A DNA stretch of 64,000 nucleotides from Candidatus Latescibacterota bacterium (GCA_965204745.1 OZ242010.1:4064001-4128000), one strand, 5' to 3'. Positions 46,501-61,029 are shown, counted from the first letter of the stretch. Notes: generated by a model not told the origin, from the letters alone. Made by a program: numbers and translations.

Positions 46501-49500
46501 AGGTGTCCACTTTTGGCGTTACGGTCACACTGGTCGGAATGCCCGGCGGTTGCAAGTTATACTGCACGGTGGTGTCCATGCCGGCATATTTCAACACGGG
46601 ATATTGATCTGTCTTGCCAAAGGTCCACGGCTCGTCGTTGCCGGGTTGTCCGTCGAGGTTGGCGTTCCAAGTGGAGAAGATGAGGGTGTAGCCGGTGGGG
46701 GATTGGAGCGCGCTGGTCGTCTGCCCGGTAACGCCGCTACCGCCGGCGCTGGTTGTGCAACCGTTGCTACCGCCGGATGTACAGCCGCTGGTTTGGGTGT
46801 CCCAGTAGCTTGCGGTGCCGCCCGTGCCGGAGCCTATCAACCCGCCGATGAGTGGAGAACTGCCGGTGCCGGTAACCATGCCGATGGAGTAGGAGTTCGT
46901 TACGGTGCCGCCTTGGCTTGCTCCCAGCAGTCCGCCGACGTGCTCAGGGCCGCTGACGGATGCGGTGGAGTAGCTTGAGGTAATCGCGTTGGGCGTCCAG
47001 CCGACCAGCCCGCCGGCGGTCCTAGTCGTCGCCGAAACGCTGCCGGTGGAGTAGCAGGCGACGACTGTGCCGCGCAGGGCGCCGACCAGAGCGGCGGCAT
47101 ATTCGCCTCCCGCAACACTGGCGTTGGTTACGCCGACGGACTCGATGCGGGAGGCGGTGTCGGCATTGCCGAATAATCCCACTTCAACGACGGCGGGGCG
47201 GTTGATGGTCAGGTTGTCGATAGTGTAGCCGTTGCCCTTGAAATCGCCGGTGTATCTGGCGGCGTTTGTGCCGATGGGTAGCCAGCCGTCGCCGTTGTTC
47301 CAGTAGGTGGCGTCTGCTGAGGTGATTTCGCCGTCGCCATTCTCGTCAAAGTTGAGGTTGTTGAGCAGTTCGTAGCCGGTACAGGTTCCGGAAGGACAAC
47401 CCATCCGGACATTGCTGGTGATGTCGCGGTTGGGAAAGGCGGCGTTGTAGGCGGTCGTATCGCTGGTTGAGGCACTTGCGTCTATGGCACCATCGCCGTT
47501 GAGATCCCAGCGGATGGCATTGAGTTGCGCCAGCGTCTCAATATCGATGAGGCCATTGCCATCGCCATCGTAATCGATCCCTTGGGGCGTGCCCATGACC
47601 TCGTCCGAGGGCGTGCTATCGGCCCCACCTGACAGGGTAGCAGTGACGCGCATCGTGTAGGTCGTGCCAAAAGTCAGGTTCTCTATCGTGTAGGTCGTGG
47701 TGCTTCCCATAGAGACCGTCTCCTGGCGAGAAGAGGTGTTGTATGCCTGTTGCCCGGACTTCCACTGTATCTTGTAGCCCGTCGCGCCGGTTGCCTCGGT
47801 CCAACGCACAAGGAGTTGGAGATGCCCCGGCGTCACGCGCACATTGGTGGGCTTGTTTGTCGCCGCAGTCACCATGACTTCCTCCGAAGGGTCACTGTCG
47901 GGTATATTGACATTGGTATTCGTGGCGATGACGCGAATCGTGTAGGTCGTCCCTGCGGTCACATTGGAGATTTTGTAGGTCGTGGTGCTCCCGCCAGCGA
48001 TAGTGGCTTGCCCGCGCGTGGCCAACGCCAGATCGGCGTTGGGATAAGTCGCTGACCCGGATTTCCACTGTACCTTATACCCGGTGGCATGGTCCACGGC
48101 GTTCCAAGTCACGGTCAGCGTGTCCACCTTCGCACTCGCCATCACAGTCGGATTGTCCAGCGTGGACGCGATAAAGATGGATTGCTCTGAGGGTGTGCCA
48201 TCGCGCACACCGGTTTTGGTGGCAATGACACGCACTGTGTAGGTCGTCCCAAACGTCAAGTTGGGAATCTTGTGGCGCGTCCCCGTGGTGGTGGCCTCAC
48301 GCGAGTCGGTATCGTAGCTCTGCGTGCCGGATTTCCACTGCACCTTGTACCCCGTCGCACCACTCACCCCACGCCACCGCACGTCCAAGGTGTCCGCTAT
48401 TATCGTCATGGTCACACTTGTCGGAATGCTCGGCGGTTGCAAGTTATACTGCACGGTGGTGTCCATGCCGGCATACTTCAACACGGGATACTGATCTGTC
48501 TTGCCAAAGGTCCACGGATCATCGCCGCCCGGTTGCCCGTCCAAGTTCAGGTCCCAATTCGTCATGTAGATGCCGGTATAACCCGTGGGGCCTTGGAGCG
48601 CGGCGGTGGTCTGGGGAGCACCGCGTCCGGTGTCGCTACGTCTGGTGGTGGTTCTATCGTAGTAGCTGTGGGTAATTGATGAATTATTGTTGGTACCGAC
48701 CAAGCCACCAACATGTGAATTAGCACTGACCGGGCCGATGGCATAGCTACCGGTTATCGTGCTGGAATAGAAGTTGGCACCGACCAGGCCACCGGTGGTA
48801 TTGTTGCCTCTGACTACGCCGGTGGCATAGCTGGCGCGTATGACGGCCTTTGGGTTGCCGGTGTTGCCGTGGAAGCCCACCAGGCCGCCGACGTAAGCAT
48901 TGCCGCTGACTGCGCCGGTAGCATAGCTAGCGATTATCGTGCCGTCACTCCAGCCCACCAAGCCGCCGGTGCTTAGATTAGACCCAGTGACGTCCACCTC
49001 GGAACGACAGGCGGTAATGGTCGAGTTGCCGTGCGCCAGCCTGCCCACCAAGCCGGCGCTTCGTGCAAACCCGCTGACCCGTCCGGTGACGCGGATGTGC
49101 ATGAGCTGTAGATTGTTGCCTTCGCCAACAAGGACTGCGGTTTCAGCATTGCCGGTCACATTGGCGTTCACCAGGCTCAAATTGCGGATCGTGTTGCCCT
49201 CGGCATAGCCGAACAGCCCGGTTTTGCTGGCGGCAGAGCGGTCGATAAACAGGTTGGAGATGGTATAGTCGTTGCCGTGGAAGGTGCCGGTGTATTTCGT
49301 CGCACTGCTGCCGATGGGCGCCCAGCCTGCGCCGCTGTTCCAGTAGGTGGCGTCTGCTGAGGTGATTTCGTTGTCGCTGTTCTCGTCAAAGTTTAGGTTC
49401 GCCATCAGTTCGTAGCCGATACAGGTGGTCTCGCAACCCATCCCCGGCGGCCGGTTGGAGAAGGCGGCATTGTAGGCGGTCGTATCGCTGGACGTGGCAC

Positions 49501-50008
49501 TTGCGTCTATGGCACCATCGGCATTGAGGTCCCAGCGCATGGCATTGAGTTGCGCCAGCCCGGTTTGCCCAGCACCGAGTTCAATGAGGTTGTCGCCGTC
49601 GGTGTCGTAGTCGGTAAAATTGCCGGCAGAGACCGTATAGGTCAGCGTGGTCGTTCCCATAGCGGGGGAAACCACGATGCGAATGCTGACCGGCGGGGTG
49701 GACACGTCGACTTGGTGGCCGCTGGCCGGGTTGGCATCGGCCGGCGTGATGGCGACAGTTGCCCCCGAATTGGTTGGGGTCGCGGTCACGGTGATCTCTG
49801 TCGCGCCGGATTGAACGGCAAATGCGTAGGTGGTTTTATCGGATGCAAATGTGGAAAGCAGGGTGCCCGGCGCGAGGGTCAGCGCGCTGAGGGTCGTATC
49901 GGTATTCGAGGGCGTCGTCTGCGCTGTCGCGGGGGCGATCAGCAAGGGCATGACCAACACGGCGATCCAGGTTGGAAGGGACAGAAAACGAAAAGTAAAG
50001 AGCACCAT
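37586..50008 (-). CDS. Giant secreted surface protein/adhesin (4140 aa): signal peptide, cadherin-like sandwich, 6 GLUG beta-helix modules, 18 FN3 domains, duplicated dockerin-like C-terminus
   Basis: Signal peptide ending ATA-Q; modules DYDxDGxGLIDI..LAQL.AIRWDLNGDG...GGLVG...YPVLKY; FN3 W..V..ATGYKVQWKSG...TTYTVRV in arrays of 3,3,4,4,4. Confidence 0.9.
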   Translation of the reverse strand: MVLFTFRFLSLPTWIAVLVMPLLIAPATAQTTPSNTDTTLSALTLAPGTLLSTFASDKTTYAFAVQSGATEITVTATPTNSGATVAITPADANPASGHQVDVSTPPVSIRIVVSPAMGTTTLTYTVSAGNFTDYDTDGDNLIELGAGQTGLAQLNAMRWDLNADGAIDASATSSDTTAYNAAFSNRPPGMGCETTCIGYELMANLNFDENSDNEITSADATYWNSGAGWAPIGSSATKYTGTFHGNDYTISNLFIDRSAASKTGLFGYAEGNTIRNLSLVNANVTGNAETAVLVGEGNNLQLMHIRVTGRVSGFARSAGLVGRLAHGNSTITACRSEVDVTGSNLSTGGLVGWSDGTIIASYATGAVSGNAYVGGLVGFHGNTGNPKAVIRASYATGVVRGNNTTGGLVGANFYSSTITGSYAIGPVSANSHVGGLVGTNNNSSITHSYYDRTTTRRSDTGRGAPQTTAALQGPTGYTGIYMTNWDLNLDGQPGGDDPWTFGKTDQYPVLKYAGMDTTVQYNLQPPSIPTSVTMTIIADTLDVRWRGVSGATGYKVQWKSGTQSYDTDSREATTTGTRHKIPNLTFGTTYTVRVIATKTGVRDGTPSEQSIFIASTLDNPTVMASAKVDTLTVTWNAVDHATGYKVQWKSGSATYPNADLALATRGQATIAGGSTTTYKISNVTAGTTYTIRVIATNTNVNIPDSDPSEEVMVTAATNKPTNVRVTPGHLQLLVRWTEATGATGYKIQWKSGQQAYNTSSRQETVSMGSTTTYTIENLTFGTTYTMRVTATLSGGADSTPSDEVMGTPQGIDYDGDGNGLIDIETLAQLNAIRWDLNGDGAIDASASTSDTTAYNAAFPNRDITSNVRMGCPSGTCTGYELLNNLNFDENGDGEITSADATYWNNGDGWLPIGTNAARYTGDFKGNGYTIDNLTINRPAVVEVGLFGNADTASRIESVGVTNASVAGGEYAAALVGALRGTVVACYSTGSVSATTRTAGGLVGWTPNAITSSYSTASVSGPEHVGGLLGASQGGTVTNSYSIGMVTGTGSSPLIGGLIGSGTGGTASYWDTQTSGCTSGGSNGCTTSAGGSGVTGQTTSALQSPTGYTLIFSTWNANLDGQPGNDEPWTFGKTDQYPVLKYAGMDTTVQYNLQPPGIPTSVTVTPKVDTLDVRWRASSYATGYKVQWKSGMQSYAASREGIVTGTRYKIPNLLGETTYTVRVIATKTGANDSTPSAEQTGVLALLGSPTVMVASKVDTLTVTWNAVNGATGYKVQWKSGATTYPTSDSQAATHGQATISDGRTTTYKISGLTAGTTYTIRVIATSTNINLADSAPSEEVMVTSATTKPTNVRVTPGPVQLIVRWTEATGATGYKVQWRSGQQTYNTSDRQETVSGMSTTTYTIENLTFGTTYTVRVTATLSGGGDSTPSDEVMGTPQGIDYDGDGNGLIDIKTLAQLNAIRWDLNGDGIVADSDITNYNAAFPNRDTTSNVRMGCPSGTCTGYELLNNLNFDTDGSGSVTSADTYPNWSPIGGTYSTTFKGNNKTISNLHINRGQDDVGLFGRVSGNISGLGLKSVNVRGRNQVGGLVGNQVGGRILGCYVTGRVEGTGHDVGGLAGESNGNNTVIAASYANAEVSGGWDHDGAGGLVGRLKATVIASYAIGPVTGNNRVGGLVGRLDIYPSSVSTSYATGTVTGRRHDSSQLGGLIGFARSGVSHSYWDSESSGRSSSSGGTSQTTSALRSETDYNGIYANWNVDVDGRPGNDAPWTFGAADQYPVLKYAGMDTTAQFAMQPPGIPTSVTVTVQRDTLDVRWRAPSNATGYKVQWKSGAQNYAVSRQAITTDTRYKIANLIGGTTYTVRIIATKTGVRDGRPSAEQTGVPLLGSPTGVEVNAKVDTLTVTWNAVNGVTSYKVQWKSGSETYPNADEESATHGQATIAGGGTTTHDISGLTPGTTYAIRVIATRTNVADSAPSEEVITLLTLGSPTGVEVSAKVDTLTVTWNAVPLATGYKVQWKSGSETYPTSDLALTTRGQATIAGGNTTIHKISGLTTETTYAIRVIATHTTTAGNSAPSEEVMVTLATTRPTNVRVTPGPDQLIVRWTEATGATGYKVQWRSGQQTYNTSSRQETVSGGSTTTYTIENLTFGTTYTVRVTATMAGGTDSTPSDEVMGMPQRINYDRDGDGLIDIKTLAQLHAIRWDLNGDGVVADNDTMNYNAAFPNRDTTSNGRMGCPSGTCTGYELLNNLDFDENGDDQITQADATYWNRGAGWIPIGTYTGTFKGNNKTISNLYISYRYPSQRNNVGLFSTVSGDISGVGLLNVNVHATDVVGGLVGAQNGGRITGCYVTGFVEGARYGVGGLVGRSLAGHIAACYSHATAQKWPSWESSVLYEVGGLVGLLGSGASVTASYATGPVAGQGGSNTRSAAGGLVGQNAGTITASYATGTATGDSNDLTGGLFATGSGTGPDSYWDTESSSLSTSAGGTGKTTSALRSETDYNGIYTNWNVDVDGRPGNDNPWTFGAADQYPVLKYAGMDTTAQFAMQPPGIPTSVTVTPKADTLDVRWTAASNATGYKVQWKSGAQNYDASREETVTGTRYKIANLLTGTTYTVRVIATKTGVRDGMPSAEQTGVPVLGIPTVMVAAKVDTLTVTWNAVNGATGYKVQWKSGSETYPAADEQSATHGQATISDGGTTTYDISGLTAGTTYAIRVIATRTNVADSTPSEEVTGVPVLGIPTVMVAAKVDTLTVTWNVVDDATGYKVQWKSGSETYPTSDLALVTRGQATIAGGGTTTYKISGLTTGTTYTIRVIATRTNVADSAPSEEVMVTLATTRPTNVRVTPGPVQLIVAWTEATGATGYKVQWRSGQQTYNTSDRQATVSGGSTTTYTIENLTFGTTYTVRVLATLAGGTDSTPSDEVMGMPQTINYDSDGDGLIDIKTLAQLHAIRWDLNGDGVVADNDTMNYNAAFPNRDTTSNGRMGCPSGTCTGYELLNNLDFDENGDGAITQADATYWNSGAGWIPIGTYTGTFKGNNKTISNLYISYRWPSQRNNVGLFSTVSGDISGVGLLNVNVHATDVVGGLVGTQNGGRITGCYVTGFVEGARYGVGGLVGRALAGHIAACYSHATAQKWPSWESSVLYEVGGLVGLLGSGASVTASYATGPVAGQGGSNTRSAAGGLVGQNAGTITASYATGTATGDSNDLTGGLFATGSGTGPDSYWDTESSSLSTSAGGTGKTTSALRSETDYNDIYANWNVDVDGRPGNDDPWTFGAADQYPVLKYAGMDTTVQYNLQPPGIPTSVTVTVQRDTLDVRWRAASYATGYKVQWKSGAQSYDASREETVTGTRYKIANLLAGTTYTVRVIATKTGAPDGRPSAEQTGVSVLGSPTVMVAAKADTLTVTWNAVTNATGYKVQWKSGSETYPAADEESATHGQATISGGSTTIHKISGLTAGTTYTIRVIATRTNVADSAPSEEVTGVPLLGSPTVMVAAKVDTLTVTWNAVSNATGYKVQWKSGSETYPAADEESATHGQATIAGGSTTTYKISGLTAETTYAIRVIATRTNVADSAPSEEVMVTLATTRPTNVRVTPGPVQLVVAWTEATGATGYKVQWKSGGQSYNTSSRQETVSGGSTTTYTIENLTIGTPYTVRVLATLAGGTDSTPSDEVMGTPYAINYDSDGDGLIDIETLAQLHAIRWDLNGDGVVADNDTMTYNAAFPDRDITSNGRMGCPSGTCTGYELLNNLDFDENGDDQITQADATYWNNGDGWLPIGTDAARYTGDFKGNGYTIDNLTINRPSLTEVGLFGNADTASRIESVGVTNASVAGGQYAAALVGALRGTVVACYSTGNVSATTRVAGGLVGWTPNAITSSYSTASVSGPEHVGGLLGASQGGSVTNSYSTGVVTRSSGTLTTIGGLIGSGTGGTASYWDTQTSGCTSGGSNGCTTSAGGGGVTGQTTSALQSPTGYTLIFSTWNANLDGQPGGDDPWTFGATNQYPVLKYAGMDTTVQFQLQSAIPSANLDVDGDGRVRLFSDIILVIRYVLFFRNEALLRGNVIEPTATRKTAQEIEPYLDTLVNQNILDVDGDGDVRLFSDIILIIRYVLFFRNEALVRGNVIEPTATRTTAQAIEPYIRSLYPDSHFQ

Positions 50009-50193
50009 TTTAGTCTCCCTCCGAGGGGGGGGGGGGGGGGGGGGTACACTGTACTGATCATCCTAACAGACTGTTTTGCAATAAAATAGAACCGCGCTCC
50101 AAGACGGGGATGGGCGTCATGAACGCCAGTTTTCGCGGTGGAAACATAGGACCAAATGAGGTTCAAACAGCGGCTGAAAATGGCGGTAATCAT
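49939..50193 (-). CDS. Leader ORF (84 aa) reading through the poly-C tract and overlapping the start of giant gene 1
   Basis: Strong RBS AAAGGAG before ATG 50193; colinear homologue at 60841-61029. Confidence 0.55.
   Translation of the reverse strand: MITAIFSRCLNLIWSYVSTAKTGVHDAHPRLGARFYFIAKQSVRMISTVYPPPPPPLGGRLKWCSLLFVFCPFQPGSPCWSCPC
50025..50044 (-). repeat. Homopolymer C20 (G20 on +) just upstream of the RBS of giant gene 1
   Basis: Counted directly; followed on the coding strand by TCGGAGGGAGACTAAA-ATG. Confidence 0.9.
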
Positions 50194-50276
50194 CTGAAGT
50201 CTCCTTTGCAAAAGCTATCGCGCAGACCGGGCGCGGCTTTTTCTCTGCGTTCAAAATCGCTATGGTGAACGAGAAA

Positions 50277-50306
50277 AATATAGGGAATCACACTCTTGTT
50301 TGTCAA
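50277..50306 (-). promoter_or_regulatory. Sigma70 promoter of giant gene 1 leader
   Basis: TTGACA-18 bp-TATATT; positionally conserved with 60728-60756. Confidence 0.6.
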
Positions 50307-50323
50307 GCGGTAAAATGACGATG

Positions 50324-50930
50324 GGAATTGGGACCTACCCCCTGGCCCCCTTCCTAAGAGGAAGGGGGAATGGCGAGAGGTTGTGCGAGGGATTGTATGT
50401 AAGGGTTTTTGGATTTGCATGGCGTGATCCATTCGCCCAAAGCCATCAAAACAGCCAGGGATACAAACCTTCAAGAAAGCCATGCGCTCCCCCTTTCCTT
50501 GTAGGAAAGGGGGCCGGGGGGATAGGTCCTGCGATGAAGGGGGAATGGCGAGAGGTTGTGCGAGGGATTGTGTGTAAGGGTTTTTGGATTTGCATGGCGT
50601 GATCCATTCGCCCAAAGCCATCAAAACAGCCAGGGATGCAAACCTTTAAGAAAGCCATGCGCTCCCCCTTTCCGCGTAGGCACAGGCGTAGCCTACAATG
50701 AGCGAAGCGAATAACGGGGGCCGGGGGGATAGGGCTTGCGGTAGGGTGGTGTGGGGTAATCCGCGCAATCCTCTAATCCGTTTAATCCGCGATTCAGACA
50801 CGGGCGGCAGGGTGAAGCGGATGGGCACGCACGGGCGGCAGGGAGGATGAAGCGGCGGTGGTGTGGTGTGGGGTAATCCGCGTAATCCCCTAATCCGTTT
50901 AATCCGCGATTCAGACACGGCGGGGCGGAC
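50324..50930 (-). repeat. Composite palindromic repeat block with internal tandem duplications
   Basis: Inverted relative to 36903-37339; an approximately 175-bp unit and the GGATTAAACGGATTA unit each occur twice. Confidence 0.8.
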
Positions 50931-51043
50931 GGCCGAGCACGGGGGCATCGCCCCTACACACACTGCTCACCTTTGAACTGGCTATCGCCAGTTGTACCCC
51001 TTTTGTGTTTTTGTGCCTCTTGTGGCTAAAATCCCATCTCATC

Positions 51044-52969
51044 TTAGACCTCCGACATATCCGGTCCCCACGGCTGAATGCGTGTGAGTTTTTTGTCCAA
51101 GGCGCGCATCAGGTCGGGCAGGTCAAAGGATGTGAGCACGCGCCGAGGGATGTTGGCAACGGGCCAACTGACCAGGGGCGTTTGCGTCCAGGCGTGGTAG
51201 GACGCGGGATAATTTTTGAGCGTGACTGCGGTGACAGCGGGATGGAGAAAGCCCGCAAAGAGGGCGTGGATAGCCCCTTGCCCGCGCCCGTAGAGCTGGA
51301 TGGATTCCGCGCCTTCATCCGCGAGCAAGTCCAGCGTGGACAACACATCGTGAACCCTGCGTCCCAAAAAACTTTGCCCGAGCATCAGGCCGTACCCATT
51401 GCACATGTAGTCATTGCCGTAGGGATGGAACAGATCGCGCTCATCATCGGCGAGCGACTCGCCCAAGCCGCGCACGTCAAGGGCATACAGCGGATATCGC
51501 TCTTTCAGGCTTCGCGCCAAGGGGTCTTCGATCAAATCGACTTCCGCAGAGATATGCGGCAAATACAAGTGGATTTCACGTTCCACATCCAAGGTGTGGG
51601 AATACGCCGGATTGGCCGGACGTTTCCGCATGATCGCGCGGATATCGCCCTCGGTTTCTATCGCGTATCGCGCCAAGCGCGTGCCGCCCTCGGTCGTGCC
51701 GCGCAGCCAGCGATGGTGCGGCACTTCGCGGTTGACCGACAGGCCGAGCGCGGTTTGCACGCACGCGATGAGTCGATCTTCGTCCAACTGCTCGCGCTTG
51801 CCGGCAAGGGCATTGGCCCTTTGCGCGATGAGGTCGTAGATGGGCACGGCGCCTTCGGGGATCACCTCGCCTTTTGGCGTGACATCGAGCGCGTCTGCGT
51901 CCAGGGTTTCCGTGGTTTGCACCCGCACGACCCGGTCAATGCCCGCGTGCATGGCAAAAAATTGCACCATCGCCTCTTGGTTGTGATGGGAATAGCCATG
52001 GCCTTCCGGGCCGATGAACAGATCAATCGCATTGCCCGGCGCGCCGATAATGTCGTAAAACCGGCGAATTTCCGAGTGGGCGCGTTTGAGCCCACGCCGA
52101 TCAAAATAGCAATGGGTTTGCCCGAGCAAGATGACCGGGGCCGGCGCGCGTGCGACAAAAAAATCGGCCATGTCCAAGCCCGCGCCGATGACCCTCGGCG
52201 GATATTGTTCGGCATCTGCCGGCAACTCATTTTCCAAATTGGCGGCAAATGTGGTGACAAAACAACTGGGCGCGGCCATTGTAAAACGCTCTTCTACGGG
52301 CCAGATCCAACTCGTCATCGTCCCGCCGCCCGAGTTGCCCGTCAGGCCGACGCGCGCGGGATCGACTTCGGGACGGGTGAGCAGATAATCGAGTGCGCGG
52401 ATGCCATCCCAGGCGCGCCACGCGCCAAACCATTCGCCCACGAGTTCGAGTTGCTTGCCCATCATGTTGTGGGCATGGGTGGATGAACGCACGCTTTCGC
52501 GGTCGCGCAGGGCGTAGTACTGATCCCGCTCGCCCTGGTTGAAGGGATCGTAGATCAACGCGACAAAGCCATTGCGCGCCAACCGCTGGCAAAATGCCTG
52601 ATAAAGCGGCGCGTTCTTGCCCTCGGCAGCATGCCCGCATGAGCCGATCACCCCAGGTGCGGGGCCATCGAGTTTGGCCGGCACGTACAGATGCGCCGTG
52701 ACCAAACACCCCGGGCGGCTCTCAAAGAGGACCTTTTCAATGCGGTAATCGCGGCGTTCAACAACCCCGACGACGCGCGCATTCAGCGGTGTTTTGCGCG
52801 GCCACGGGCGATACGCTCTGTCAATGGCCTCGCGCACCTCATCCCGGTACGCAAACGCCTCCCGCTTTGTGCGGATGGACGCCAAGCGTTTTGCGCGGTC
52901 CGCATTGATCGCCCGCACCTGCGCGACATAGTCGTCTAGCACCATGTGTCCATAACCATTTCGCGGCAT
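51044..52969 (-). CDS. Alpha/beta-hydrolase (acetylxylan esterase-like, tandem domains)
   Basis: EKVLFESRPG, QGER, WDGIRALDYL, GNSGGG nucleophile elbow. Confidence 0.8.
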   Translation of the reverse strand: MPRNGYGHMVLDDYVAQVRAINADRAKRLASIRTKREAFAYRDEVREAIDRAYRPWPRKTPLNARVVGVVERRDYRIEKVLFESRPGCLVTAHLYVPAKLDGPAPGVIGSCGHAAEGKNAPLYQAFCQRLARNGFVALIYDPFNQGERDQYYALRDRESVRSSTHAHNMMGKQLELVGEWFGAWRAWDGIRALDYLLTRPEVDPARVGLTGNSGGGTMTSWIWPVEERFTMAAPSCFVTTFAANLENELPADAEQYPPRVIGAGLDMADFFVARAPAPVILLGQTHCYFDRRGLKRAHSEIRRFYDIIGAPGNAIDLFIGPEGHGYSHHNQEAMVQFFAMHAGIDRVVRVQTTETLDADALDVTPKGEVIPEGAVPIYDLIAQRANALAGKREQLDEDRLIACVQTALGLSVNREVPHHRWLRGTTEGGTRLARYAIETEGDIRAIMRKRPANPAYSHTLDVEREIHLYLPHISAEVDLIEDPLARSLKERYPLYALDVRGLGESLADDERDLFHPYGNDYMCNGYGLMLGQSFLGRRVHDVLSTLDLLADEGAESIQLYGRGQGAIHALFAGFLHPAVTAVTLKNYPASYHAWTQTPLVSWPVANIPRRVLTSFDLPDLMRALDKKLTRIQPWGPDMSEV

Positions 52970-53049
52970 GAGAAACTCCAATCGGTAAGAGGGGAGACGG
53001 GAGAGGGAAGACGTAAGAGGGCCGCCCAGCCACCCCAAGTGGTCAGTGG

Positions 53050-54093
53050 TCAGTCCGCTGTGTTCTGTATGTGGTTGCTTTTTTGAATCGCCAACTTGCT
53101 TCCCACTCGAATCGCCTGCATCATGTTCGCGGCTTTGGCGATGCCTTTGCCCGCAATATCGTAAGCCGTGCCGTGATCCACAGAGGTTCGCACGATGGGC
53201 AGGCCGAGGGTTATGTTCACGGCCTCGTCGAACGCGACCAGTTTTGCGGGCACATGGCCTTGGTCGTGGTACATCGCCACCACGCCGTCGTAGATGCGGT
53301 TATAGACCTTGAGAAAAGTCGTATCCGCGGGCAATGGGCCATCCACGCGCCAACCGTTGTACAATGCCCGTTCAACTGCGGGGCGGATGATCTCGGCATC
53401 CTCGCGGCCAAACAAGCCATTTTCGCCCGCGTGTGGATTGAGGCCGCACACCGCGAGCCGGGGATCGGACGCGCCCAAGCCGATCAGCGCGTCTCGGGTC
53501 AGGCGAATCACGTCGCAGATCAGATCGGACGTGAGCCTGTCGGGTACCTCGTGTAACGGAATATGCCCGGTGACGTGCGACACGCTCAGGCGGTCAGATG
53601 CCAGCATCAAATACGCGCGGCCCGCGCCCGAGTGCTCGGCCAACAATTCCGTGTGCCCCGCGTACGCGTACCCCGCCAAATTCATCGCTTCCTTGTTCAA
53701 AGGCGCGGTGACAATGCCATCTATGCGATTTGCTATCGCCAAATCAACCGCGTGAATCACCCACTCCGCCGCTGCTTTTCCGGCCTCGGCGCGCACCTCG
53801 CAGAGGACGATCCGATCCACATTCACTTCTAGCGGGCAGCACACATCCACGCATCCAAATTCAAACGCGCCATTTTCCGGGCGATCCACCATTCGCAGGT
53901 CCAACTGCACGCCGGCCATTGCCATATCGCGTTTTAATATGTCGGGATGGCCGATTACGAGCGGCCTGCACACGCGGTAGCTCTCCTCGCGTCCGAGTGC
54001 CTTCAAGATCACCTCGGGCCCTATGCCACCCGGATCGCCCATCGTCATCCCCATCAGCGGACGATTGCCCGACTCGTCTTTCCCAAGCATCAT
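53050..54093 (-). CDS. pdxA: 4-hydroxythreonine-4-phosphate dehydrogenase PdxA family
   Basis: TMGDPGGIGPE, TAPLNKE, GLNPHAGE, MYHDQGH, RTSVDHGTAYDIAG. Confidence 0.93.
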   Translation of the reverse strand: MMLGKDESGNRPLMGMTMGDPGGIGPEVILKALGREESYRVCRPLVIGHPDILKRDMAMAGVQLDLRMVDRPENGAFEFGCVDVCCPLEVNVDRIVLCEVRAEAGKAAAEWVIHAVDLAIANRIDGIVTAPLNKEAMNLAGYAYAGHTELLAEHSGAGRAYLMLASDRLSVSHVTGHIPLHEVPDRLTSDLICDVIRLTRDALIGLGASDPRLAVCGLNPHAGENGLFGREDAEIIRPAVERALYNGWRVDGPLPADTTFLKVYNRIYDGVVAMYHDQGHVPAKLVAFDEAVNITLGLPIVRTSVDHGTAYDIAGKGIAKAANMMQAIRVGSKLAIQKSNHIQNTAD

Positions 54094-54145
54094 TCGCTCC
54101 CAAAAAAAGTGGTGCCCCCAAGCCGCCACAATCGCGATTTTTTAC

Positions 54146-54730
54146 CTAAGCCAAGCCCGCGGCTTTCAGCAAAATTTTTTGCTCGTCCGCGTCGAGGTGC
54201 ATCTCGTCCATGTGCCCCATCAGTTTGTCGCGCCTGCGTGCATCTCGTTTCCGCGTCTCGGCAACGAGGTCCGTAAGCCTCGTGAAAGTCCCCTGTTGAT
54301 CGTTAGGTACGAGTTGGCCCGAATCCATGAACTTGATCCGCCCTTGCAAGTCTTCCGGCACGGTCCCGAGTGCTCGTTTTTTGAACTTCTCGACGTTTCG
54401 CGTTGCAATCTCTGTTCTGCCACAGGCCGCGGGCAGGAAGGGCTCGTTCATCCGCATTGCCGCGCCTTCCAGCAAGCAAGTCAACGCTTCGCGGCTCAAT
54501 GAACTCGCTTCGGGAACATCGAGAACGAGCCAACGATTTAGCGTCTCAATTTTTTTTCGTTCTCGCTCATCGGGAACGAGATTCACGGATGGCGAGTACG
54601 CGCAATTCACAGCGGGCCAAATCGTTTTTTCATGGGCGTTTTTTTTCGCCTGCCGCCTCAGCGACAAGTATATCAGGAAGAACGCCCCTGTTGTAATGAC
54701 CATGCCGATGAGTGTCATGACTGCTTCCAT
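54146..54730 (-). CDS. Hypothetical protein with N-terminal TM
   Basis: 194 aa; its ATG overlaps (TAATG) the stop of the upstream small ORF once IS607 is removed. Confidence 0.6.
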   Translation of the reverse strand: MEAVMTLIGMVITTGAFFLIYLSLRRQAKKNAHEKTIWPAVNCAYSPSVNLVPDERERKKIETLNRWLVLDVPEASSLSREALTCLLEGAAMRMNEPFLPAACGRTEIATRNVEKFKKRALGTVPEDLQGRIKFMDSGQLVPNDQQGTFTRLTDLVAETRKRDARRRDKLMGHMDEMHLDADEQKILLKAAGLA

Positions 54731-54739
54731 TACTCATCC

Positions 54740-54900
54740 TGATACCTTTCTGTTGACCCTTATTAACAGCGTGAGCAAATCAATAAGTGTTCAACCAGTG
54801 CAAGTTGCATCCAAACAGTTCCGCAACTTGGGTGTATCCACCAAAGCACGGAGAAAAATACCCCGTGCGCCGTTGATATCTCGATCCATGACTTGACCAT
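54740..54900 (-). ncRNA. Predicted TnpB omega/reRNA scaffold at the IS607 right end (5' boundary uncertain)
   Basis: Expected location for this family; hairpin CAAGTTGC/GCAACTTG (54801-54830), CTGTT/AACAG hairpin, and possible GATAC/GTATC pairing between 54834-54838 and 54741-54745. Confidence 0.5.
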
Positions 54901-55933
54901 CTTTTCTGCTACGAATGACTTTCGCTCCGCCCAAGTTTTTTACAATCTCACCTGTCCAACTGACTGTCTTGGATGTGTAAGCCTCGTTCACATCCAAGAC
55001 CAACTTGCCAGTTTCAAACGCCTTGTGCTTGAGAAACTGCTTGAAGCGATAATGGGCAAAAGTCAACATTGAGCGGACAGACTTACGGCGAAGGCAACGC
55101 TTACCGCGCACAACCATCTCGGTCGTCTCAAACGTGGGCAGAAGAATCACATCGTAGTTGTCCACCAGCCAGCGCGCAGTCTGTTTGTGCAGTTCATCGA
55201 TCAAGTCTCGGATGCGCCACCGCATGCGATGGCAGGCACGCTTCAAACGCACCTGGCGAAAGCCGATGGCCTTTGTCATGCGACCGATCAACCCGTCAAG
55301 ATGAATACACAAACGCTGAATACGACCAAAATCACCCTCGCCAATCTTACCGCAATCTGTTTCAGAAAAGAACGTCAAGAAACTGCGAATACCAGGATCA
55401 AGCGCCACGACACGCCCTTGGTTCTCGGCTACGTGCCGTGGACTTGAATGAGGCACGGTCACAGAGTACCGGCCATTGTAACTGACCAAACGGCCATCCT
55501 TCGGAACAACTGACAATGGCTCAGACAAACGCACATTGCCAAGGCTAAGAGGATAAAATGTCGTCAATGCCTTATTCCAAGCCACATGGCACAAATACAA
55601 GGACTGGATAGGGGCTTTACGACTACGGAACTGCAAGAGCACTTTCCGCTTTATCCCTTGCTTCTTGAATGCTTTACGCTTACGCCAGACCGCCTGGTTT
55701 GCCTGGTAAGCATCGGCTATCGCACCGCAAAGAATCTTGCTCGGCACATCGGCAAACCAGAAAGGACTCACCGCACGGACAACACGTCGCATATCGTATT
55801 CAGACAAAGAAAATCCCGCACGGTACAACGACACAGCCTCGTTATACCACCAGCGGGTAGCGACCATCCAATGCCTGAACTTTGCGCGCTGATCAGCGTT
55901 CGGATAGATTCTTATCTTCCTTGATTTTGTCAC
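54791..55933 (-). CDS. tnpB: TnpB RNA-guided endonuclease (DPG-type RuvC)
   Basis: KIRIYP, VVALDPGIRSF, VNEAYTSKT, DRDINGARGI; GTG 55933 lies 1 nt after the tnpA stop, but the frame stays open to 56440. Confidence 0.88.
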   Translation of the reverse strand: MTKSRKIRIYPNADQRAKFRHWMVATRWWYNEAVSLYRAGFSLSEYDMRRVVRAVSPFWFADVPSKILCGAIADAYQANQAVWRKRKAFKKQGIKRKVLLQFRSRKAPIQSLYLCHVAWNKALTTFYPLSLGNVRLSEPLSVVPKDGRLVSYNGRYSVTVPHSSPRHVAENQGRVVALDPGIRSFLTFFSETDCGKIGEGDFGRIQRLCIHLDGLIGRMTKAIGFRQVRLKRACHRMRWRIRDLIDELHKQTARWLVDNYDVILLPTFETTEMVVRGKRCLRRKSVRSMLTFAHYRFKQFLKHKAFETGKLVLDVNEAYTSKTVSWTGEIVKNLGGAKVIRSRKDGQVMDRDINGARGIFLRALVDTPKLRNCLDATCTG

Positions 55934-55934
55934 G

Positions 55935-56468
55935 CTACTTGCGGAGGCCGGACAGCCTGCAAGAGAACGTATCCAGAAGGGATAAAATATCCTGTGTGAG
56001 TTCTTGTTCTGGACGACACTTTGACGCGTCGAGAACCACGACCGCGCCCCCGTTTTGCTTTGCCAGCCAGTCAACAAGTTCAAAGCCAAACCGTGCAAGG
56101 CGGTCTTGGTGGGCAACCACAATTCGCAACTTTTCTCCGCTGTGTAAGCGTTCCAGTAGGGCGACAAGGCCCTTCCGCTTTTCGTTGAGGCCTCCGTCAA
56201 TGTCTTTGACGACCTCTGCGCTGGGATAACCGGATTGAAGGAGCGCAACTTGCCCGCGCAAGTCGTCTTTTTGGGCATAACGACTGACCCGTGCATAGAG
56301 CACAAATTCAACGCCAACTTCTTCCCGCAAGAACGCATTGACATCGTAAAGTCTCCTTCCGCCTGGACTGCGAATATGCTCAATCCGACCGTCATTCGCC
56401 CACTTACGCAACGTATTCGGATGAACACCGAGCAAAGCAACCGCTTTGCGAGTATTTACATAAGGCAT
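55935..56468 (-). CDS. tnpA: IS607 TnpA serine recombinase
   Basis: MerR-like HTH LGVHPNTLRKW..G....RSPGGRRLY, YARVS catalytic Ser, DRLARFGFEL. Confidence 0.9.
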   Translation of the reverse strand: MPYVNTRKAVALLGVHPNTLRKWANDGRIEHIRSPGGRRLYDVNAFLREEVGVEFVLYARVSRYAQKDDLRGQVALLQSGYPSAEVVKDIDGGLNEKRKGLVALLERLHSGEKLRIVVAHQDRLARFGFELVDWLAKQNGGAVVVLDASKCRPEQELTQDILSLLDTFSCRLSGLRK

Positions 56469-56496
56469 AGCAACTTACGGCTTTTGTGAACAAGTG

Positions 56497-56709
56497 TCAG
56501 CAATTTATTTCCAAGCCGCTATCTCCTTGTGCAATCAAAATGCACAACGCGCCTATCCCGATGCCCGTGGCAACCATGACAACATACGGAAATGGGGTCT
56601 CGGCCCGCAAGATGGGTGCGATAATCCCCCCGACAATCCACGCGATGCCGATGCCTTTTGCCGTATCTGCCAACAGCTTGATTTGGTCATTGCTCATCTT
56701 CATACCCAT
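56497..56709 (-). CDS. Small two-TM protein, last codons replaced by IS607
   Basis: LLADTAKGIGIAWIVGGIIAPI...VVMVATGIGIGALCILIA. Confidence 0.5.
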   Translation of the reverse strand: MGMKMSNDQIKLLADTAKGIGIAWIVGGIIAPILRAETPFPYVVMVATGIGIGALCILIAQGDSGLEINC

Positions 56710-56713
56710 TTTC

Positions 56714-59700
56714 CTAATCGTCATCGGCGACGTCATAAGCCACATCGCGGCGGGCAAAGACCCCTGCACTCAGGCGGCGGAGGGCCAAGCGCAGATCGTC
56801 GAGCAAGGTGTAGAACAGGGGTACGACGAGCAGGGTCAGAAATGTCGATGCCAAAAGCCCGCCCATCATCGTGCGCCCAAGCGGCGCGTAGGGCACGCCC
56901 ATCACATTGCTACCGCCCACGGCCATGGGCAACAAGCCAAACACGGTCGTAAAGGTCGTCATCAAAATGGGGCGGAAGCGATTGCGGCCCGCCTCCAAAA
57001 TCGCGTCGAAGCGCGCCCTGCCATCGGCGCGCAGGCGGTTGATCATATCCACCAGCACAATCGCGTTGTTCACCACCACGCCGATCAGCACGATCACCCC
57101 GATAAACGCCATCGTATCCATGGGCGTATCTGTCAAATACAAGGTCCAGTACACGCCCAAAAAGGAAAACGGGATGGAGAAGAGCACGGAAAACGGCAAG
57201 ACGAACGACTCGAACAAAACGCCCATCAGCAAAAACACGCTCGTCACCGCCATCACCATGCCGATTTGCCCAGAGGTCTCGGTCTCTTGAAGTTGCTTGA
57301 ATCGCTCGCCTTTGTGCCACGAATACCCGCGCGGCAACTCGATCCCGTCCATCATTTTGTCTATCGCCTCGTACAACCTCCTGCCAGATTCCATCGTATA
57401 GGTCCGAATCCGCAACTTGACCCTGCCATCGTACCGGGCGATGCGCCCGGTGCCACGCGAGACCTCAAAGGAAGCGATCTCGCCCAGGGCCACTTCCGCG
57501 CCTTCGTCGGTCGAAAACGCGAAATTGCGTAACTGATTCAGATTTTGCCTATCCGCCCGCTCCAAGTACAGGCGCACCCTGACTTCGCCATCTTCGGATT
57601 GAAACCGGGGCAGCGAGACGCCTTGCAAGCCGTAGGCGATATAGCGTCCAATATCCCGTGCAGAAACGCCCATGCGGTTCGACCGTTCTCGATCAACTGC
57701 GACTCGCACCTCGTCATCGGCCCGTTCCAAATCCGTGTCGATGCTGACGATCGACGGGATTTGTTGCAGGCGCCACGTCACCTCATCCACGAGCCCGATC
57801 AGCACCTCGGTGTCCTCGCCTTCCAGATAGACCGATACGGACGACTCGCCGCTGATGCCATCGCCGTACCGCGCCAAGGAGTGCCACACGCCCACGTATT
57901 TCGGCGTGTGCTCGCCGATATCCGCGACCATCTCTTGCCGTTCCATTGGCCCATCAAGGGGGATGCCGAGTGCTTTGCGTGCGTTTTTGTACGCGATGAA
58001 CCACCACGGGTCCTCGCTTTTGAGGGGCATGTACATCCGCAAATACCCAAAGCCGGGGCGGTAGTACACGCGCAGGATTTCATAGCCGTATTCCGCGCGC
58101 TTCTCCTCTAAGAAGTGCTCGACTTCGGTCACGATGCGCGCGGTTTCTTCCAACGTAAAGTGGCGCGGCATTTTTAAGCGCACGCTCAAATCGTTCACCT
58201 TGCCGCCCCCGCGGTCCGCGCGCTTGAGATTCGCCAGGGGATTGGGCTGAAATTCGGGGTACATCCACATCGTCGCCGTCAGTGCGAGCGCGATCAAGAC
58301 CGCGTCCCGCCGGTGGTTTAATGTCCATGCCAACATGCGCGCATACCCCCCTCGCACCATGGCGATAGACTTGGGATCTGGGCGCACCTGCCCCTTGCCC
58401 ACTTGCACGGACGCCAACGGGATGAACAACAGGGCCACGAACAGCGAGCCGACTAGCGCGATGCAAACCGGCACCCCCATGCGCGTCATGTAAAAGTTCA
58501 TGAACATATTGCCGCTGAACAACATCATCGGCAAAAACACCACCACCGTCGTCAACGTCGCCATGGTGATCGCCAGCCCCACTTCGCTCGCGCCCCAGAT
58601 CGCGGCGTCTTTGGGGGTATCGCCATTGCCGCGCCTGCGGTAGATGTTTTCCAAAATGACGATGGCATTATCGACCACCAAGCCCACGCCGACCATGAGG
58701 CCCATCATGGTCACGACATTGAGGGACCAGCCGATGAAGTACAGCGCGGTCATGGTGATCATCACGCACAGGGGAATGGCCAGGGTGATGATGCCCGTCA
58801 TGCGGAAGGTTCTCAAGTAGAACAACAGCACCAGCGCGGCGAACAACCCGCCCCAAAGCCCGGTTTCTCGCAGGTTGCGGATGGATTCTTTGATGAAAAA
58901 TCCCTGGTTGAAGATCACGCGAAACGACACGCGCCCGGCCAAGCGCGGGTCTCGCTCGAGTTCGCGCAGCTTGGCCTCTACCCGGTCCGTGATCTCCACG
59001 ACGTTCGCGCCCGATTCTTGTTTGATGCCAAAGCTGATGCCGGGCTTGCCGTCGATGCGCTGAATCCACGACATTTCGGGCACGTCGTACACGACCCGCG
59101 CCACTTCGCCCAGGCGCACCTTGCCCGCTCGGGACAGGATTTGGATATCCTCGATTTCTCGCAGTGCGGTGTAGCGCGCCAGCGAGCGCACGTAAAATTT
59201 CTTTTCGCCCTCGCGCACGTACCCCCCGGCGAGTGCGAAATTGTCGTTTTTGAGGGTCGAGACGATTTCGCCGATCCGCACGCCGCGCGCGCGCATGCGC
59301 TCTCGATCCACTTCCACCATCACTTCTTTTCGTTGCACGCCGAAAAAGCCGATCTGACCCACGCCATCCACGCGCTCTAAGGGCCGCTGGATGTGCGTTT
59401 CGATAAACCGAAACTGGTCCGTGATGGTGGAGTCTATCGCCATCGCCACCCACATGACTTCCCACGAATCATCATCGTATTTGCGAACCCGCACGTCGTC
59501 CCGCGCTTCTTCGGGCAGGTGGGGTTTGAGGTGTTCGAGGCGGTCCGAGACCTGATTGTAAGCCGCGACCATGTCGGTGTATTGGCGAAATTCGATGATC
59601 GCCCGCGCCCCGTTCGATTCGCTGTAACTCCGCAGGCTCGCGATGCCCTTGACCGTGCGGAGCGTTTCTTCCAAGGGCAGGGTGATCAGCTGCTCGGTCT

Positions 59701-59890
59701 CTTGCGGCGTGGCATTGCGAAACCCCACGCGCACGCTCAAGATGGGCCGTTCCAACCCTTTGGGCATCAGTTTGACGGGCACGCGCCAATACGCCACGGC
59801 CCCCAGCACGAGCAACGCGATGAGGCACATGGTAATGGACACGGGCCGCAATACGGAAATGCGCGGGAGGAGTGAGGATTTGGGGGTCAT
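56714..59890 (-). CDS. RND efflux permease (AcrB/AcrD/AcrF family)
   Basis: 1058 aa; GLVVDNAIVILENI, GVVVNNAIVLVD, RFRPILMTT. Confidence 0.93.
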   Translation of the reverse strand: MTPKSSLLPRISVLRPVSITMCLIALLVLGAVAYWRVPVKLMPKGLERPILSVRVGFRNATPQETEQLITLPLEETLRTVKGIASLRSYSESNGARAIIEFRQYTDMVAAYNQVSDRLEHLKPHLPEEARDDVRVRKYDDDSWEVMWVAMAIDSTITDQFRFIETHIQRPLERVDGVGQIGFFGVQRKEVMVEVDRERMRARGVRIGEIVSTLKNDNFALAGGYVREGEKKFYVRSLARYTALREIEDIQILSRAGKVRLGEVARVVYDVPEMSWIQRIDGKPGISFGIKQESGANVVEITDRVEAKLRELERDPRLAGRVSFRVIFNQGFFIKESIRNLRETGLWGGLFAALVLLFYLRTFRMTGIITLAIPLCVMITMTALYFIGWSLNVVTMMGLMVGVGLVVDNAIVILENIYRRRGNGDTPKDAAIWGASEVGLAITMATLTTVVVFLPMMLFSGNMFMNFYMTRMGVPVCIALVGSLFVALLFIPLASVQVGKGQVRPDPKSIAMVRGGYARMLAWTLNHRRDAVLIALALTATMWMYPEFQPNPLANLKRADRGGGKVNDLSVRLKMPRHFTLEETARIVTEVEHFLEEKRAEYGYEILRVYYRPGFGYLRMYMPLKSEDPWWFIAYKNARKALGIPLDGPMERQEMVADIGEHTPKYVGVWHSLARYGDGISGESSVSVYLEGEDTEVLIGLVDEVTWRLQQIPSIVSIDTDLERADDEVRVAVDRERSNRMGVSARDIGRYIAYGLQGVSLPRFQSEDGEVRVRLYLERADRQNLNQLRNFAFSTDEGAEVALGEIASFEVSRGTGRIARYDGRVKLRIRTYTMESGRRLYEAIDKMMDGIELPRGYSWHKGERFKQLQETETSGQIGMVMAVTSVFLLMGVLFESFVLPFSVLFSIPFSFLGVYWTLYLTDTPMDTMAFIGVIVLIGVVVNNAIVLVDMINRLRADGRARFDAILEAGRNRFRPILMTTFTTVFGLLPMAVGGSNVMGVPYAPLGRTMMGGLLASTFLTLLVVPLFYTLLDDLRLALRRLSAGVFARRDVAYDVADDD

Positions 59891-59932
59891 GGGAGAATCC
59901 CGTAAAGAGATGGTGCGACCAAGTGCTTTCTA

Positions 59933-60193
59933 TTATCGAGGATTGGAACGGATTTGGCAAACAGAGTTTTCAATGCCCATTTCTGCCTCTCCATCCTCCG
60001 CAACAGCGATACCATACCTTTTCATCGCATCTACAATATCTTCATTCACCATGCTTTCAATAAACCACCTTTCACCTACATAATCTCCACCTGCATTCAT
60101 CCCTTCTAACAAAATATCAATATACTGAACAAGCGTTTCCGCCGTACCCAAACCCATCAAAGGATCAATAGGAACTGTTTTCGTTTTCGCCAT
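59933..60193 (-). CDS. Small hypothetical protein
   Basis: RBS GAGGAGG before MAKTKT; AT-rich. Confidence 0.5.
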   Translation of the reverse strand: MAKTKTVPIDPLMGLGTAETLVQYIDILLEGMNAGGDYVGERWFIESMVNEDIVDAMKRYGIAVAEDGEAEMGIENSVCQIRSNPR

Positions 60194-60259
60194 TGCAACC
60201 TCCTCACAATTCGGACGCCAACCTTTTTGCCCGTTCAATATCAAAATCAGTAGTCAGTA

Positions 60260-60710
60260 GGTTGTGTTGACATTTGGGATATTTTTTGATCGTGTTGACA
60301 TTTCATTTTTTTCTGACGTTACGCACAGATTAGCAAATGTATTGTGTTGCTTGCTCATTTAAGGCGTTTGGTCCTTTGATGGCGTTGCGCGAGGGGACCT
60401 ATCCCCCGGCCCCGTTATTCGCTTCGCTCATTGTAGGCTACGCCTGTGCCTACGAGGAAAGGGGGAGCGCATGGCTTTCTTAAAGGTTTGTATCCCTAGC
60501 TGCTTTGATGGCGTTTGTGACCTATCCCCCGGCCCCTTTCCTACAAGGAAAGGGGAGTAAAGTTCCTTTGATGGCTTATATCAATGGCTACTCTGATGGC
60601 GTTGTGCGAGGGCATAAAGCGATTAAAAATCCCTTATCAATCCCCTCGCACAACCTCTCGCCATTCCCCCTTCCTCGCAGGAAGGGGGCCAGGGGGTAGG
60701 TCCCAATTCC
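60260..60710 (+). mobile_element. MITE-like mosaic: two IS5-type left ends plus palindromic repeat block
   Basis: TA-GGTTGTGTTGACATTT (60260-60275), second end at about 60290-60303, body homologous to 33512-33812; no right IR seen. Confidence 0.7.
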
Positions 60711-60727
60711 CATCGTCATTTTACCAC

Positions 60728-60756
60728 TTGACAAATAATAGCGTAATTTTTAATTT
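60728..60756 (+). promoter_or_regulatory. Sigma70 promoter of giant gene 2 leader
   Basis: TTGACA-17 bp-TAATTT. Confidence 0.55.
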
Positions 60757-60840
60757 TTTACCCATTCGCTATTTCGATTTTGAGCGCGGAGGAAAGGCCG
60801 TGCCCGGTCTGCGCGACAGCTTTTGCAAAGGAGACTTCAG

Positions 60841-61029
60841 ATGATTCCCGCCATTTTTCGACGTTGTTCAAACCTGTTTAGAGGCCACCGTTCTCCTGCG
60901 AAAACGGGCGTTCATGGTGCCCATTCCCGTCTTGGAGTGCGGTCCTATTTCATTGCAAAACAGTCCGTTAGGATGATCAGTACAGTGTACCCCCCCCCCC
61001 CCCCCCCCTCGGAGAGGGGGACAAAATGA
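60841..61029 (+). CDS. Leader ORF (62 aa) reading through poly-C, stop overlapping the ATG of giant gene 2
   Basis: RBS AAAGGAG; MIPAIF...MISTVYPPPPPPSERGTK*; ATGA overlap at 61026-61029. Confidence 0.55.
   Translation: MIPAIFRRCSNLFRGHRSPAKTGVHGAHSRLGVRSYFIAKQSVRMISTVYPPPPPPSERGTK
60990..61008 (+). repeat. Homopolymer C19 just upstream of the RBS of giant gene 2
   Basis: Counted directly; followed by TCGGAGAGGGGGACAAA-ATG. Confidence 0.9.

Follow-up and report, generated by a model that had tools for sequence, protein, structure and literature searches.

Why should two giant genes that point away from each other both be preceded by the same short open reading frame (ORF), running into a long and pure run of cytosines? 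The question is raised by a stretch of 64,000 nucleotides (nt) from a Candidatus Latescibacterota bacterium (GCA_965204745.1 OZ242010.1:4064001-4128000), here called the window and numbered from its first letter. Two divergent genes for giant secreted proteins, gene 1 and gene 2, are separated in it by an 11-kb interval, and each has a 5' module composed of a leader ORF with its own Shine-Dalgarno (SD) sequence, a poly-C tract, and a second SD and ATG that begin the gene proper. The best explanation of the module is that it serves a sponge-associated Latescibacterota bacterium as the common 5' control region for a large family of paralogous giant secreted proteins of the FN3/GLUG/Calx-beta type. 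Judging from sequence alone, we give an even chance to the further proposal that the register in which the leader is read really affects output, through a slipped-strand contingency system with two starts.

The elements of the two modules, in window coordinates, are as follows.

37586..50008, minus strand: gene 1, a giant secreted protein of 4140 amino acids (aa), with signal peptide MVLFTFRFLSLPTWIAVLVMPLLIAPATAQ, 18 FN3 stretches, GLUG and a cadherin-like domain
50009..50024, minus strand: spacer of gene 1, 16 nt, with the main SD GGAGGGAG at 50015-50022, 6 nt 5' of the gene-1 ATG
50025..50044, minus strand: poly-C tract of gene 1, C20, which reads G20 on the plus strand
49939..50193, minus strand: leader ORF 1, ATG at 50193, 84 codons in the present register; it crosses the tract and then runs 67 nt beyond the gene-1 ATG, out of frame
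50201..50207, minus strand: leader SD of module 1, AAAGGAG, 7 nt 5' of the leader ATG
50277..50306, minus strand: sigma-70-like promoter of module 1, TTGACA-18-TATATT, 11/12 matches in a promoter scan
60728..60733, plus strand: TTGACA, the -35-like hexamer of module 2, where the scan called no full promoter
60827..60833, plus strand: leader SD of module 2, AAAGGAG
60841..61029, plus strand: leader ORF 2, 62 codons, whose TGA stop at 61027-61029 overlaps the gene ATG to give ATGA
60990..61008, plus strand: poly-C tract of gene 2, C19
61009..61025, plus strand: spacer of gene 2, 17 nt, with the main SD GGAGAGGGGG at 61011-61020
61026..>63998, plus strand: gene 2, a giant secreted protein that extends beyond the window (2549 aa in the genome), with signal peptide MMPRYAHLLALVALGMLVASGPAFAQ and GLUG

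Every element that a sequence-only reading of this stretch had described for the two modules, coordinates included, is present in the sequence. The modules align without gaps from TTGACA through the gene ATG, and runs of at least 12 C gave 17 matches in the window against 0.01 expected from shuffles. The leader ATG lies 185 nt from the gene ATG at both genes, a constancy that the same reading had pointed out. It does not hold in the wider family, where the distance ranges over 177-200 nt in 24 copies and is 185 nt in just three of them; the equal spacing in the window is therefore a coincidence without design meaning.

The modules belong to a large family. The genome is a single contig of 5.48 Mb with 56.5% G+C; it holds 30 C/G runs of at least 12 nt and one A/T run that long, and 24 of the 30 are part of a leader module. 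A 25-nt motif ending in the tract had 26 matches in the genome (17 exact), and the reversed-pattern control had none. Tract lengths in the 24 copies are C12, C15 (two copies), C16 (two), C17 (two), C18, C19 (three), C20 (four), C22 (four), C23 (two), C24 and C25 (two). The ATG of a Sec-type signal peptide follows 14-19 nt 3' of the tract in 24/24 copies, TTGACA is conserved in nearly all module copies, and the main ORF measures 838-6292 aa in all but two of the 24. The two remaining main ORFs are truncated, with 59 and 128 aa, and belong to the copies at G000:C1:276197 and 4491927 (L009, L016). The 128-aa truncation recurs unchanged in a second assembly (P0027), which speaks against its being an error made in assembling the source genome.

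A leader profile made from 31 leader peptides was searched against genomes of the genus and order. It found 37 copies in the source genome, namely the 24 with a tract and 13 in which the tract is collapsed, interrupted or deleted. Matches came from 3 of the 53 genomes searched in the order, all in one genus (3 of its 21 genomes). Two of them are related species: G018 has 11 full module copies and G016 has one, with ~73% DNA identity to the source-genome module and tracts of C9-C28. The idea of a reused, portable cassette is thus borne out by 37 leader copies in the source genome and by 14 and at least one in the two relatives. When one genome from each of 185,579 species was scanned for the pattern (the window's own genome possibly excluded), leader-like loci were confirmed only in two Candidatus Latescibacterota/Latescibacteria metagenome-assembled genomes (MAGs). 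A weak leader-like match in a Myxococcaceae record, with 33% identity and an E value of 2e-4 calculated among the candidates only, was set aside as probably due to chance. Scans of metagenome contigs with a gene-2-specific 27-mer and with a generic motif gave 0 matches each. The stretch itself is held by 24 sequencing runs from nine studies, all as contigs and including sponge and marine metagenomes; no RNA run is among the runs listed as holding it.

The N-terminal module of gene 2 has 134 matches in the source genome, 22 in G018, and 0-3 in each of the other 19 genomes of the genus. By a hand sum, the giant secreted proteins take up ~95,500 codons, or ~5% of the source genome. Only the genomes rich in the cassette show a strong expansion of the giant-gene family; G016, with its one leader copy, falls within the group with 0-3 matches.

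Several features of the leader ORF make it very likely, on sequence grounds, that it is translated. An SD and a start codon are present in 24/24 copies (one with GTG), and the leader frame is open in all 24 and in all 12 copies from the two related species, 36/36 in total. Among the 33 normal-register copies, stops interrupt the leader frame in 0/33, compared to 33/33 and 31/33 for the two shifted frames. The leader ATG lies 149 nt from the tract in 17 copies, 161 nt in five, 145 nt in one and 152 nt in one, the change in the 145- and 152-nt variants sitting at the tract edge. Leader lengths in the relatives are 149, 92, 155 and 182 nt, plus two edge variants, and all internal length changes (+12, -57, +6 and +33 nt) are multiples of three. 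Within the source genome, the ratio of nonsynonymous to synonymous change (pN/pS) is 0.52 in the leader frame, versus 0.88 and 1.31 in the shifted frames. The N-terminus, M[IL]TAIF[RS]RC[LS]NL, and the C-terminus, YFIAKQSVRMISTVY followed by prolines, are conserved around a variable middle, and the best-conserved part is the C-terminus just before the prolines. Apart from the two end motifs, then, conservation would mainly concern that the leader is translated at all and in which register it enters the tract. The leader and three fused N-termini had no match up to E 10 to the ESPR extended signal peptide family (Pfam PF13018), nor did the leader match any other Pfam family at E up to 10.

The register in which the leader reaches the gene ATG varies from copy to copy. 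Ten of the 24 copies have it in frame with the gene, and so fused to it; eight have it in frame +2 and six in frame +1. Of the unfused leaders, nine stop at or just before the gene ATG, seven by an ATGA overlap and two with a stop 1 nt before the ATG, depending on the register; the other five overrun the start by 22-39 codons. All three leader registers foreseen by the sequence-only reading are accordingly found among the copies, with the predicted consequences of fusion, a stop at the start, and overrun. Frame 0 through the spacer is open in five spacer types (checked by hand). The copies in the relatives are divided 4:4:4 among the registers, with ATGA in four of the 12, and pooling all 36 copies gives 14:12:10. 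Such even use (10:8:6 and 4:4:4) is as expected of a fast random switch, and neutrality predicts the same.

The tract is very probably hypermutable. A protein search with the gene 2 leader returned 19 short leader ORFs (47-97 aa) and six fused forms from the source and other assemblies; five of the six fused leader-giant proteins called elsewhere are 1427-1913 aa long. Matched loci were paired by eye on leader identity, without synteny, and their tract lengths were read back from the proline count and tail:

P0007 and copy 3201420: 1/50 leader residues differ, C11 versus C15
P0005 and copy 1706194: 4-5/50 leader residues differ, C14 versus C25
P0012 and copy 2580859: 1/50 leader residues differ, C15 versus C25
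P0003 and copy 2634032: 1/50 leader residues differ, C14 versus C16
P0033 and copy 4491927: 0/50 leader residues differ, C21 versus C17; the downstream 128-aa ORF is identical too (P0027)

The tracts differ at 5/5 matched loci by 2-11 nt, in leaders that differ at 0-5 of 50 residues. With C12-C25 among paralogues and these differences between strains, the hypervariability suspected from the window is borne out. P0002 and P0031 have identical leaders with nine and seven prolines, respectively, and one contig of run X10 bridges the gene 1 tract with nine fewer C's. Among the contig pieces listed for runs X1, X2 and X5, none bridges that tract. The run contigs are 70-350-nt fragments of a multi-copy family from mixed strains; among those listed, none covers the stretch from end to end. 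The tract consists of CCC only, though proline coding would permit any CCN codon. The genome encodes Rho, EF-P, MutS and MutL; with MutS and MutL present, missing mismatch repair does not explain the instability of the tract.

Directly 5' of every tract is a mini-palindrome, GTAC-AGT-GTAC (50045-50057 on the minus strand and 60977-60989 on the plus strand), which in the related species reads GTAC-AAT-GTAC. It shows no covariation because it is nearly invariant, with one G-U wobble pair in 1/22 copies; it may act in slippage or in the peptide. There is also a second kind of poly-C tract in the genome, TATAAAAAACAACAACTTA-C19-GAAAA at G000:C1:1833000-1833018 (L100:501-519), located ~40 nt 5' of a gene for a 289-aa secreted protein (no Pfam family), after which comes a sulfatase gene. 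Other genomes of the genus and order have tracts of C20-C27 whose A-rich surroundings, ..CTTTA/..ACTTA, are similar in part (L032-L036, L040). Five further long C-runs lie outside the module: two of C13 at 3250395-3250407 and 4295687-4295699, and others at 732472 (C21), 1578675 (C18) and 4540232 (C16). The two C13 tracts look like a duplicated element because their flanks are nearly identical, with one difference in the 85 flanking bases shown.

The 13 source-genome copies without an intact tract give a view of modules that are fixed in one state. These copies, and the counts made on them, were read by eye from the search output:

L071 and L072: fused, C5
L077: fused, CCCCTCCC
L074 and L075: fused, with deletions that spare the main SD and ATG
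L073 and L076: fused; tract, main SD and main ATG are deleted and the leader is joined in frame to the hydrophobic core of the signal peptide (1795 and 6972 aa)
L078 and L079: unfused, leader stop 5 nt before the gene ATG
L081 and L082: unfused, ATGA overlap
L080: unfused, overruns the start
L083: unfused, truncated leader

All 13 keep intact giant ORFs of ~1501-6972 aa. Open frames in the seven fused copies measure 1604-6972 aa, and the six unfused copies have intact ORFs from the main ATG of 1543, 1864, 3756, 3773, 1858 and ~1501 aa. The leader ATG appears to be a working start, since L073 and L076 have no other. The unfused copies suggest that the main ATG is a working start as well, so that each gene would have two starts whose relation is set by the tract. 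Collapsed tracts are all of 8 nt or less, and nothing of 9-11 nt is found in the source genome. The overrunning register is seen in 1/13 fixed copies, compared to ~4 expected (hand binomial, P ~0.04); because these copies are not independent, the low count is only a hint that overrunning is disfavoured.

The mechanism that we propose would work as follows. Start 1, the conserved SD and ATG, would open the ~50-codon leader ORF that runs into the pure poly-C tract, and Start 2, the G-rich SD and ATG 14-19 nt 3' of the tract, would begin an ordinary Sec signal peptide. By slipped-strand mutation the tract would gain or lose C's and so shift the leader among three registers. In the fused register, leader, proline run and short linker would form an N-terminal extension of the signal peptide. 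In the terminating register (ATGA, or TAA/TGA 1 nt before the ATG), re-initiation could be coupled to translation of the leader. In the overrunning register, translation would continue 22-39 codons past the main start, and far longer in two copies of the related species, which should interfere with Start 2. Each of the ~24 genes could in this way independently and reversibly change the amount and the presequence of its surface protein, as in contingency (phase variation) systems. The effect of register may be quantitative or confined to the overrun state. More doubtful, in our view, is a full three-state, two-start switch in which the leader ribosome reads on, stops and couples, or silences the start, and in which the C-run also serves as anti-SD partner and polyproline brake.

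The anti-SD part of that proposal was put forward in the sequence-only reading, and it stands as a prediction. As read by eye from minimum-energy folds, ~14/24 copies have the SD paired to the 3' part of the tract, and ~5 have it paired to codons 2-4. Local folds of the 24 copies put the mean cost of opening the region from SD to ATG at 12.3 kcal/mol, versus 10.6 kcal/mol with the tract cut to C3; the values are 13.5 versus 6.6 kcal/mol for gene 1 and 15.8 versus 10.7 kcal/mol for gene 2. Tract:SD pairing needs only ~5-7 C's. These folding models make anti-SD pairing thermodynamically plausible for many copies, without comparative support. Wider searches of the leader RNA likewise returned little. 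The covariance models of Rfam 15 had 0 matches at gathering score in the 64-kb window, folds of the whole leader had z-scores of -0.42 and +0.90 and so no unusual stability, and RNAalifold on 22 leaders gave a weak consensus (-4.83 kcal/mol), with three pairs showing a double change and no conserved fold. A short hairpin near GCGAAAA in the leader was dropped as a candidate because its register shifts between copies.

Several points weigh against a contingency system in which register controls output. RNAalifold on 22 ribosome-binding-site regions found 0 pairs, and neither the tract:SD hairpin nor the hairpin of the SD with codons 2-4 shows covariation; in this respect the pairing idea fell short. 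The main objection is that the mature product should not differ between most registers if both starts work and the signal peptide is cleaved. Since fixed copies are intact whether fused or not, both starts seem usable, and a strict ON/OFF effect is not evident. Across species the leader is under only weak amino-acid constraint (pN/pS 0.79, versus 0.82 for the shifted frames), and within the relatives there is none (0.97). In a single-contig assembly a C20 tract may be miscounted by a base or more, so the register of any one copy is uncertain, and slippage of RNA polymerase or of the ribosome on C20 could blur the registers. Finally, the evidence on tract length comes from assembled contigs and concerns differences between strains, not reversible switching or switching within one population.

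How else might the module be explained? The tract could be hypervariable and have little function, as an unstable proline linker in a dispensable presequence, with Start 2 acting autonomously and giving the same mature protein in every register. Copies fixed in the fused (seven) and unfused (six) states with intact giant ORFs are consistent with this, as are the strong SD at the main ATG in all tract-bearing copies and the even registers. We nevertheless consider it unlikely. A neutral tract should decay by interruption, yet 24 tracts here and 11 in the related species are pure C over 12-28 nt, and collapsed tracts are all of 8 nt or less, with a gap at 9-11 nt. Nor would neutrality lead one to expect a leader SD, ATG and frame conserved across species, or overrun in 1/13 fixed copies instead of ~4 (P ~0.04, copies not independent). 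Alternatively, the leader could be a regulatory peptide and slippage incidental: a stall at the prolines, responding to EF-P or proline supply, or Rho loading on the C-rich RNA, would then gate the main SD or read-through into the 3-19 kb gene. The leader is best conserved at its C-terminus, just before the prolines, tract:SD pairing is predicted in ~14/24 copies, and both EF-P and Rho are encoded. With the tract 14-19 nt from the main ATG, its geometry suggests that a ribosome stalled early in the tract would keep the tract off the SD. A stall, though, needs only three or more prolines from any CCN codons, which leaves pure C12-C28 and the length differences at matched loci unexplained; 13 copies without the proline run keep intact genes, and the RNA has no conserved structure and no Rfam match. 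We regard a regulatory peptide of this kind as improbable.

Long C runs are prone to sequencing errors, and this raises the question of whether all of the genes in fact start at the leader ATG, in frame, with the other registers being errors in homopolymer length. The leader is in frame at ten of the 24 copies, six giant proteins that begin with an in-frame leader were found among the calls of other assemblies, and L073 and L076 have the leader start only. Six loci that are easily read (C4-C6 or interrupted) are nevertheless unfused with intact main ORFs, the in-frame share of 14/36 is near one third, and the differences at matched loci reach 10-11 nt, beyond an error of one or two bases. The main SD and ATG are moreover conserved in all tract-bearing copies, and a pure assembly artefact is therefore very hard to credit. 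A different role for the tract is suggested by Neisseria pilE, where a nearby G-quadruplex is reportedly linked to gene conversion: the G-run on the template strand could be a hotspot of recombination or G-quadruplex formation that drives gene conversion among paralogues, with no translational switch. The modules are indeed mosaic, combining two types of 5' untranslated region (UTR), two types of leader N-terminus and several types of spacer and signal peptide in varied ways, and 23/24 tracts have at least 15 nt, in principle enough for an intramolecular G-quadruplex. Such a hotspot would not explain why the tract lies between two starts that can be in register, or why the other frames stop at the main ATG, and we give it very little weight.

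If the two-start contingency system is real, it is of a known kind, repeat-driven phase variation in the presequences of surface proteins; what is new here is the two-start design with its long conserved upstream ORF, the longer tracts, the use of one cassette at 24 to 37 giant genes, and the host. Poly-G in Neisseria pilC, CTCTT repeats in opa and CT repeats in outer-membrane protein genes of Helicobacter pylori all cause phase variation within the region coding for the signal peptide. As in those genes, a pure repeat lies in the presequence of a surface protein, slippage shifts the frame, and many paralogous loci are involved. Unlike in those genes, a second SD and ATG follow the tract, so that out-of-frame states are not simple truncations; the tracts are also much longer (C12-C28), there is a conserved ~50-codon leader, and the host is an uncultured, sponge-associated bacterium instead of a pathogen. 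In lic1 of Haemophilus influenzae, the number of CAAT repeats picks the in-frame start codon among several and produces more than two expression states. The likeness is that repeat number decides which start is in frame; lic1, however, is a single gene with a tetranucleotide repeat, is not known to have a long conserved leader peptide or a stop/start overlap, and its output was measured, whereas here only sequence was read.

Leader peptides that arrest the ribosome, as in SecM-secA, MifM-yidC2 and ErmCL-ermC, unmask a downstream SD. The present module resembles them in having an upstream ORF with a conserved C-terminus and a stall-prone end before an SD that is predicted to be partly occluded, and differs in that its putative stall element is a plain proline run of hypervariable length that is dispensable in 13 copies. 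Campylobacter tracts are usually ~G8-G13 and lie in unrelated genes. The Campylobacter poly-G/C contingency loci number tens of tracts per genome, within and between genes, and many affect surface structures, according to the part of the source available (PMC8355987). Here, by contrast, one conserved cassette stands before a single gene family, and MutS and MutL are present in the source genome. In hmw1A of H. influenzae, the accessible portion of one report describes a heptamer repeat in the 5' UTR that is transcribed and pairs with a G-rich region, its length setting expression of the adhesin (PMC12721329). That repeat is untranslated, its long hairpin is processed by RNase III, and expression drops with length, as far as the same portion goes (PMC12721329). 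Compared on that basis, both systems place a repeat upstream of a gene for a large surface protein, with G-rich pairing that is here a prediction; the differences are that our tract lies inside a translated ORF and that its predicted pairing with the SD is short and without covariation.

To our knowledge, nearly all described cases of phase variation come from pathogens or from a small number of commensals. Our literature search returned no paper joining marine sponge, symbiont and phase-variable, and nothing in print on the leader/poly-C cassette. The available parts of the phase-variation papers that it turned up do not mention sponge symbionts. A genome paper on sponge Latescibacterota reports FN3 proteins and, in the portion of its text available, has no word starting with 'phase' or 'adhes' (PMC12993501). 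If the two-start reading is correct, most of the giant FN3-rich surface-protein genes (~5% of the genome) would be under individual stochastic control, which would bear on how sponge symbionts escape ingestion by host cells or killing by phage. Were the full three-state switch real, its ~24 independent loci could be combined into a very large range of surface coats for a sponge symbiont, and no contingency-locus system would have been described earlier from a sponge-associated or Latescibacterota bacterium. The family supplies a concrete set of loci to look for in existing sponge metagenomes. It also matters for annotation, as the start codons of giant genes in MAGs, and calls of such genes as "frameshifted", depend on an unstable and error-prone tract.

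Upstream of the leader ORF, the 5' UTR (50219-50235 on the minus strand, and the equivalent site in other copies) contains two hairpins that overlap, GCGCGG..CCGCGC and CGCGCC..GCGCG, the latter with TTTT after it; in another type of UTR their place is taken by GCAGGC..GCCTGC. Reading the terminator-like hairpin at 50235-50219 as an attenuator found no support and was abandoned, with 15 terminator-like sites compared to 13.8 in shuffles.

Between the giant genes, the window encodes a 549-aa TnpB/Cas12f-like ORF (54791-56440, minus strand) with a Cas12f1-like TNB domain and an OrfB helix-turn-helix. Genes for PdxA, an S9/alpha-beta hydrolase and an AcrB-type transporter lie beside it. No SD-like motif precedes the start of the AcrB-like gene or of the PdxA gene in the regions checked (59891-59930 and 54130-54169, both minus strand). 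The strong GGAGG-type motifs at both module starts stand out against these two starts, a comparison of two genes only. Upstream of both modules, at 50330-50700 and 60380-60720, lie arrays of palindromic repeats resembling repetitive extragenic palindromes (REP-like), with units such as CCCCCTTCCT..AGGAAGGGGG and GGCTACGCCTGTGCCTAC. They are partly common to the two sides and also flank other module copies.

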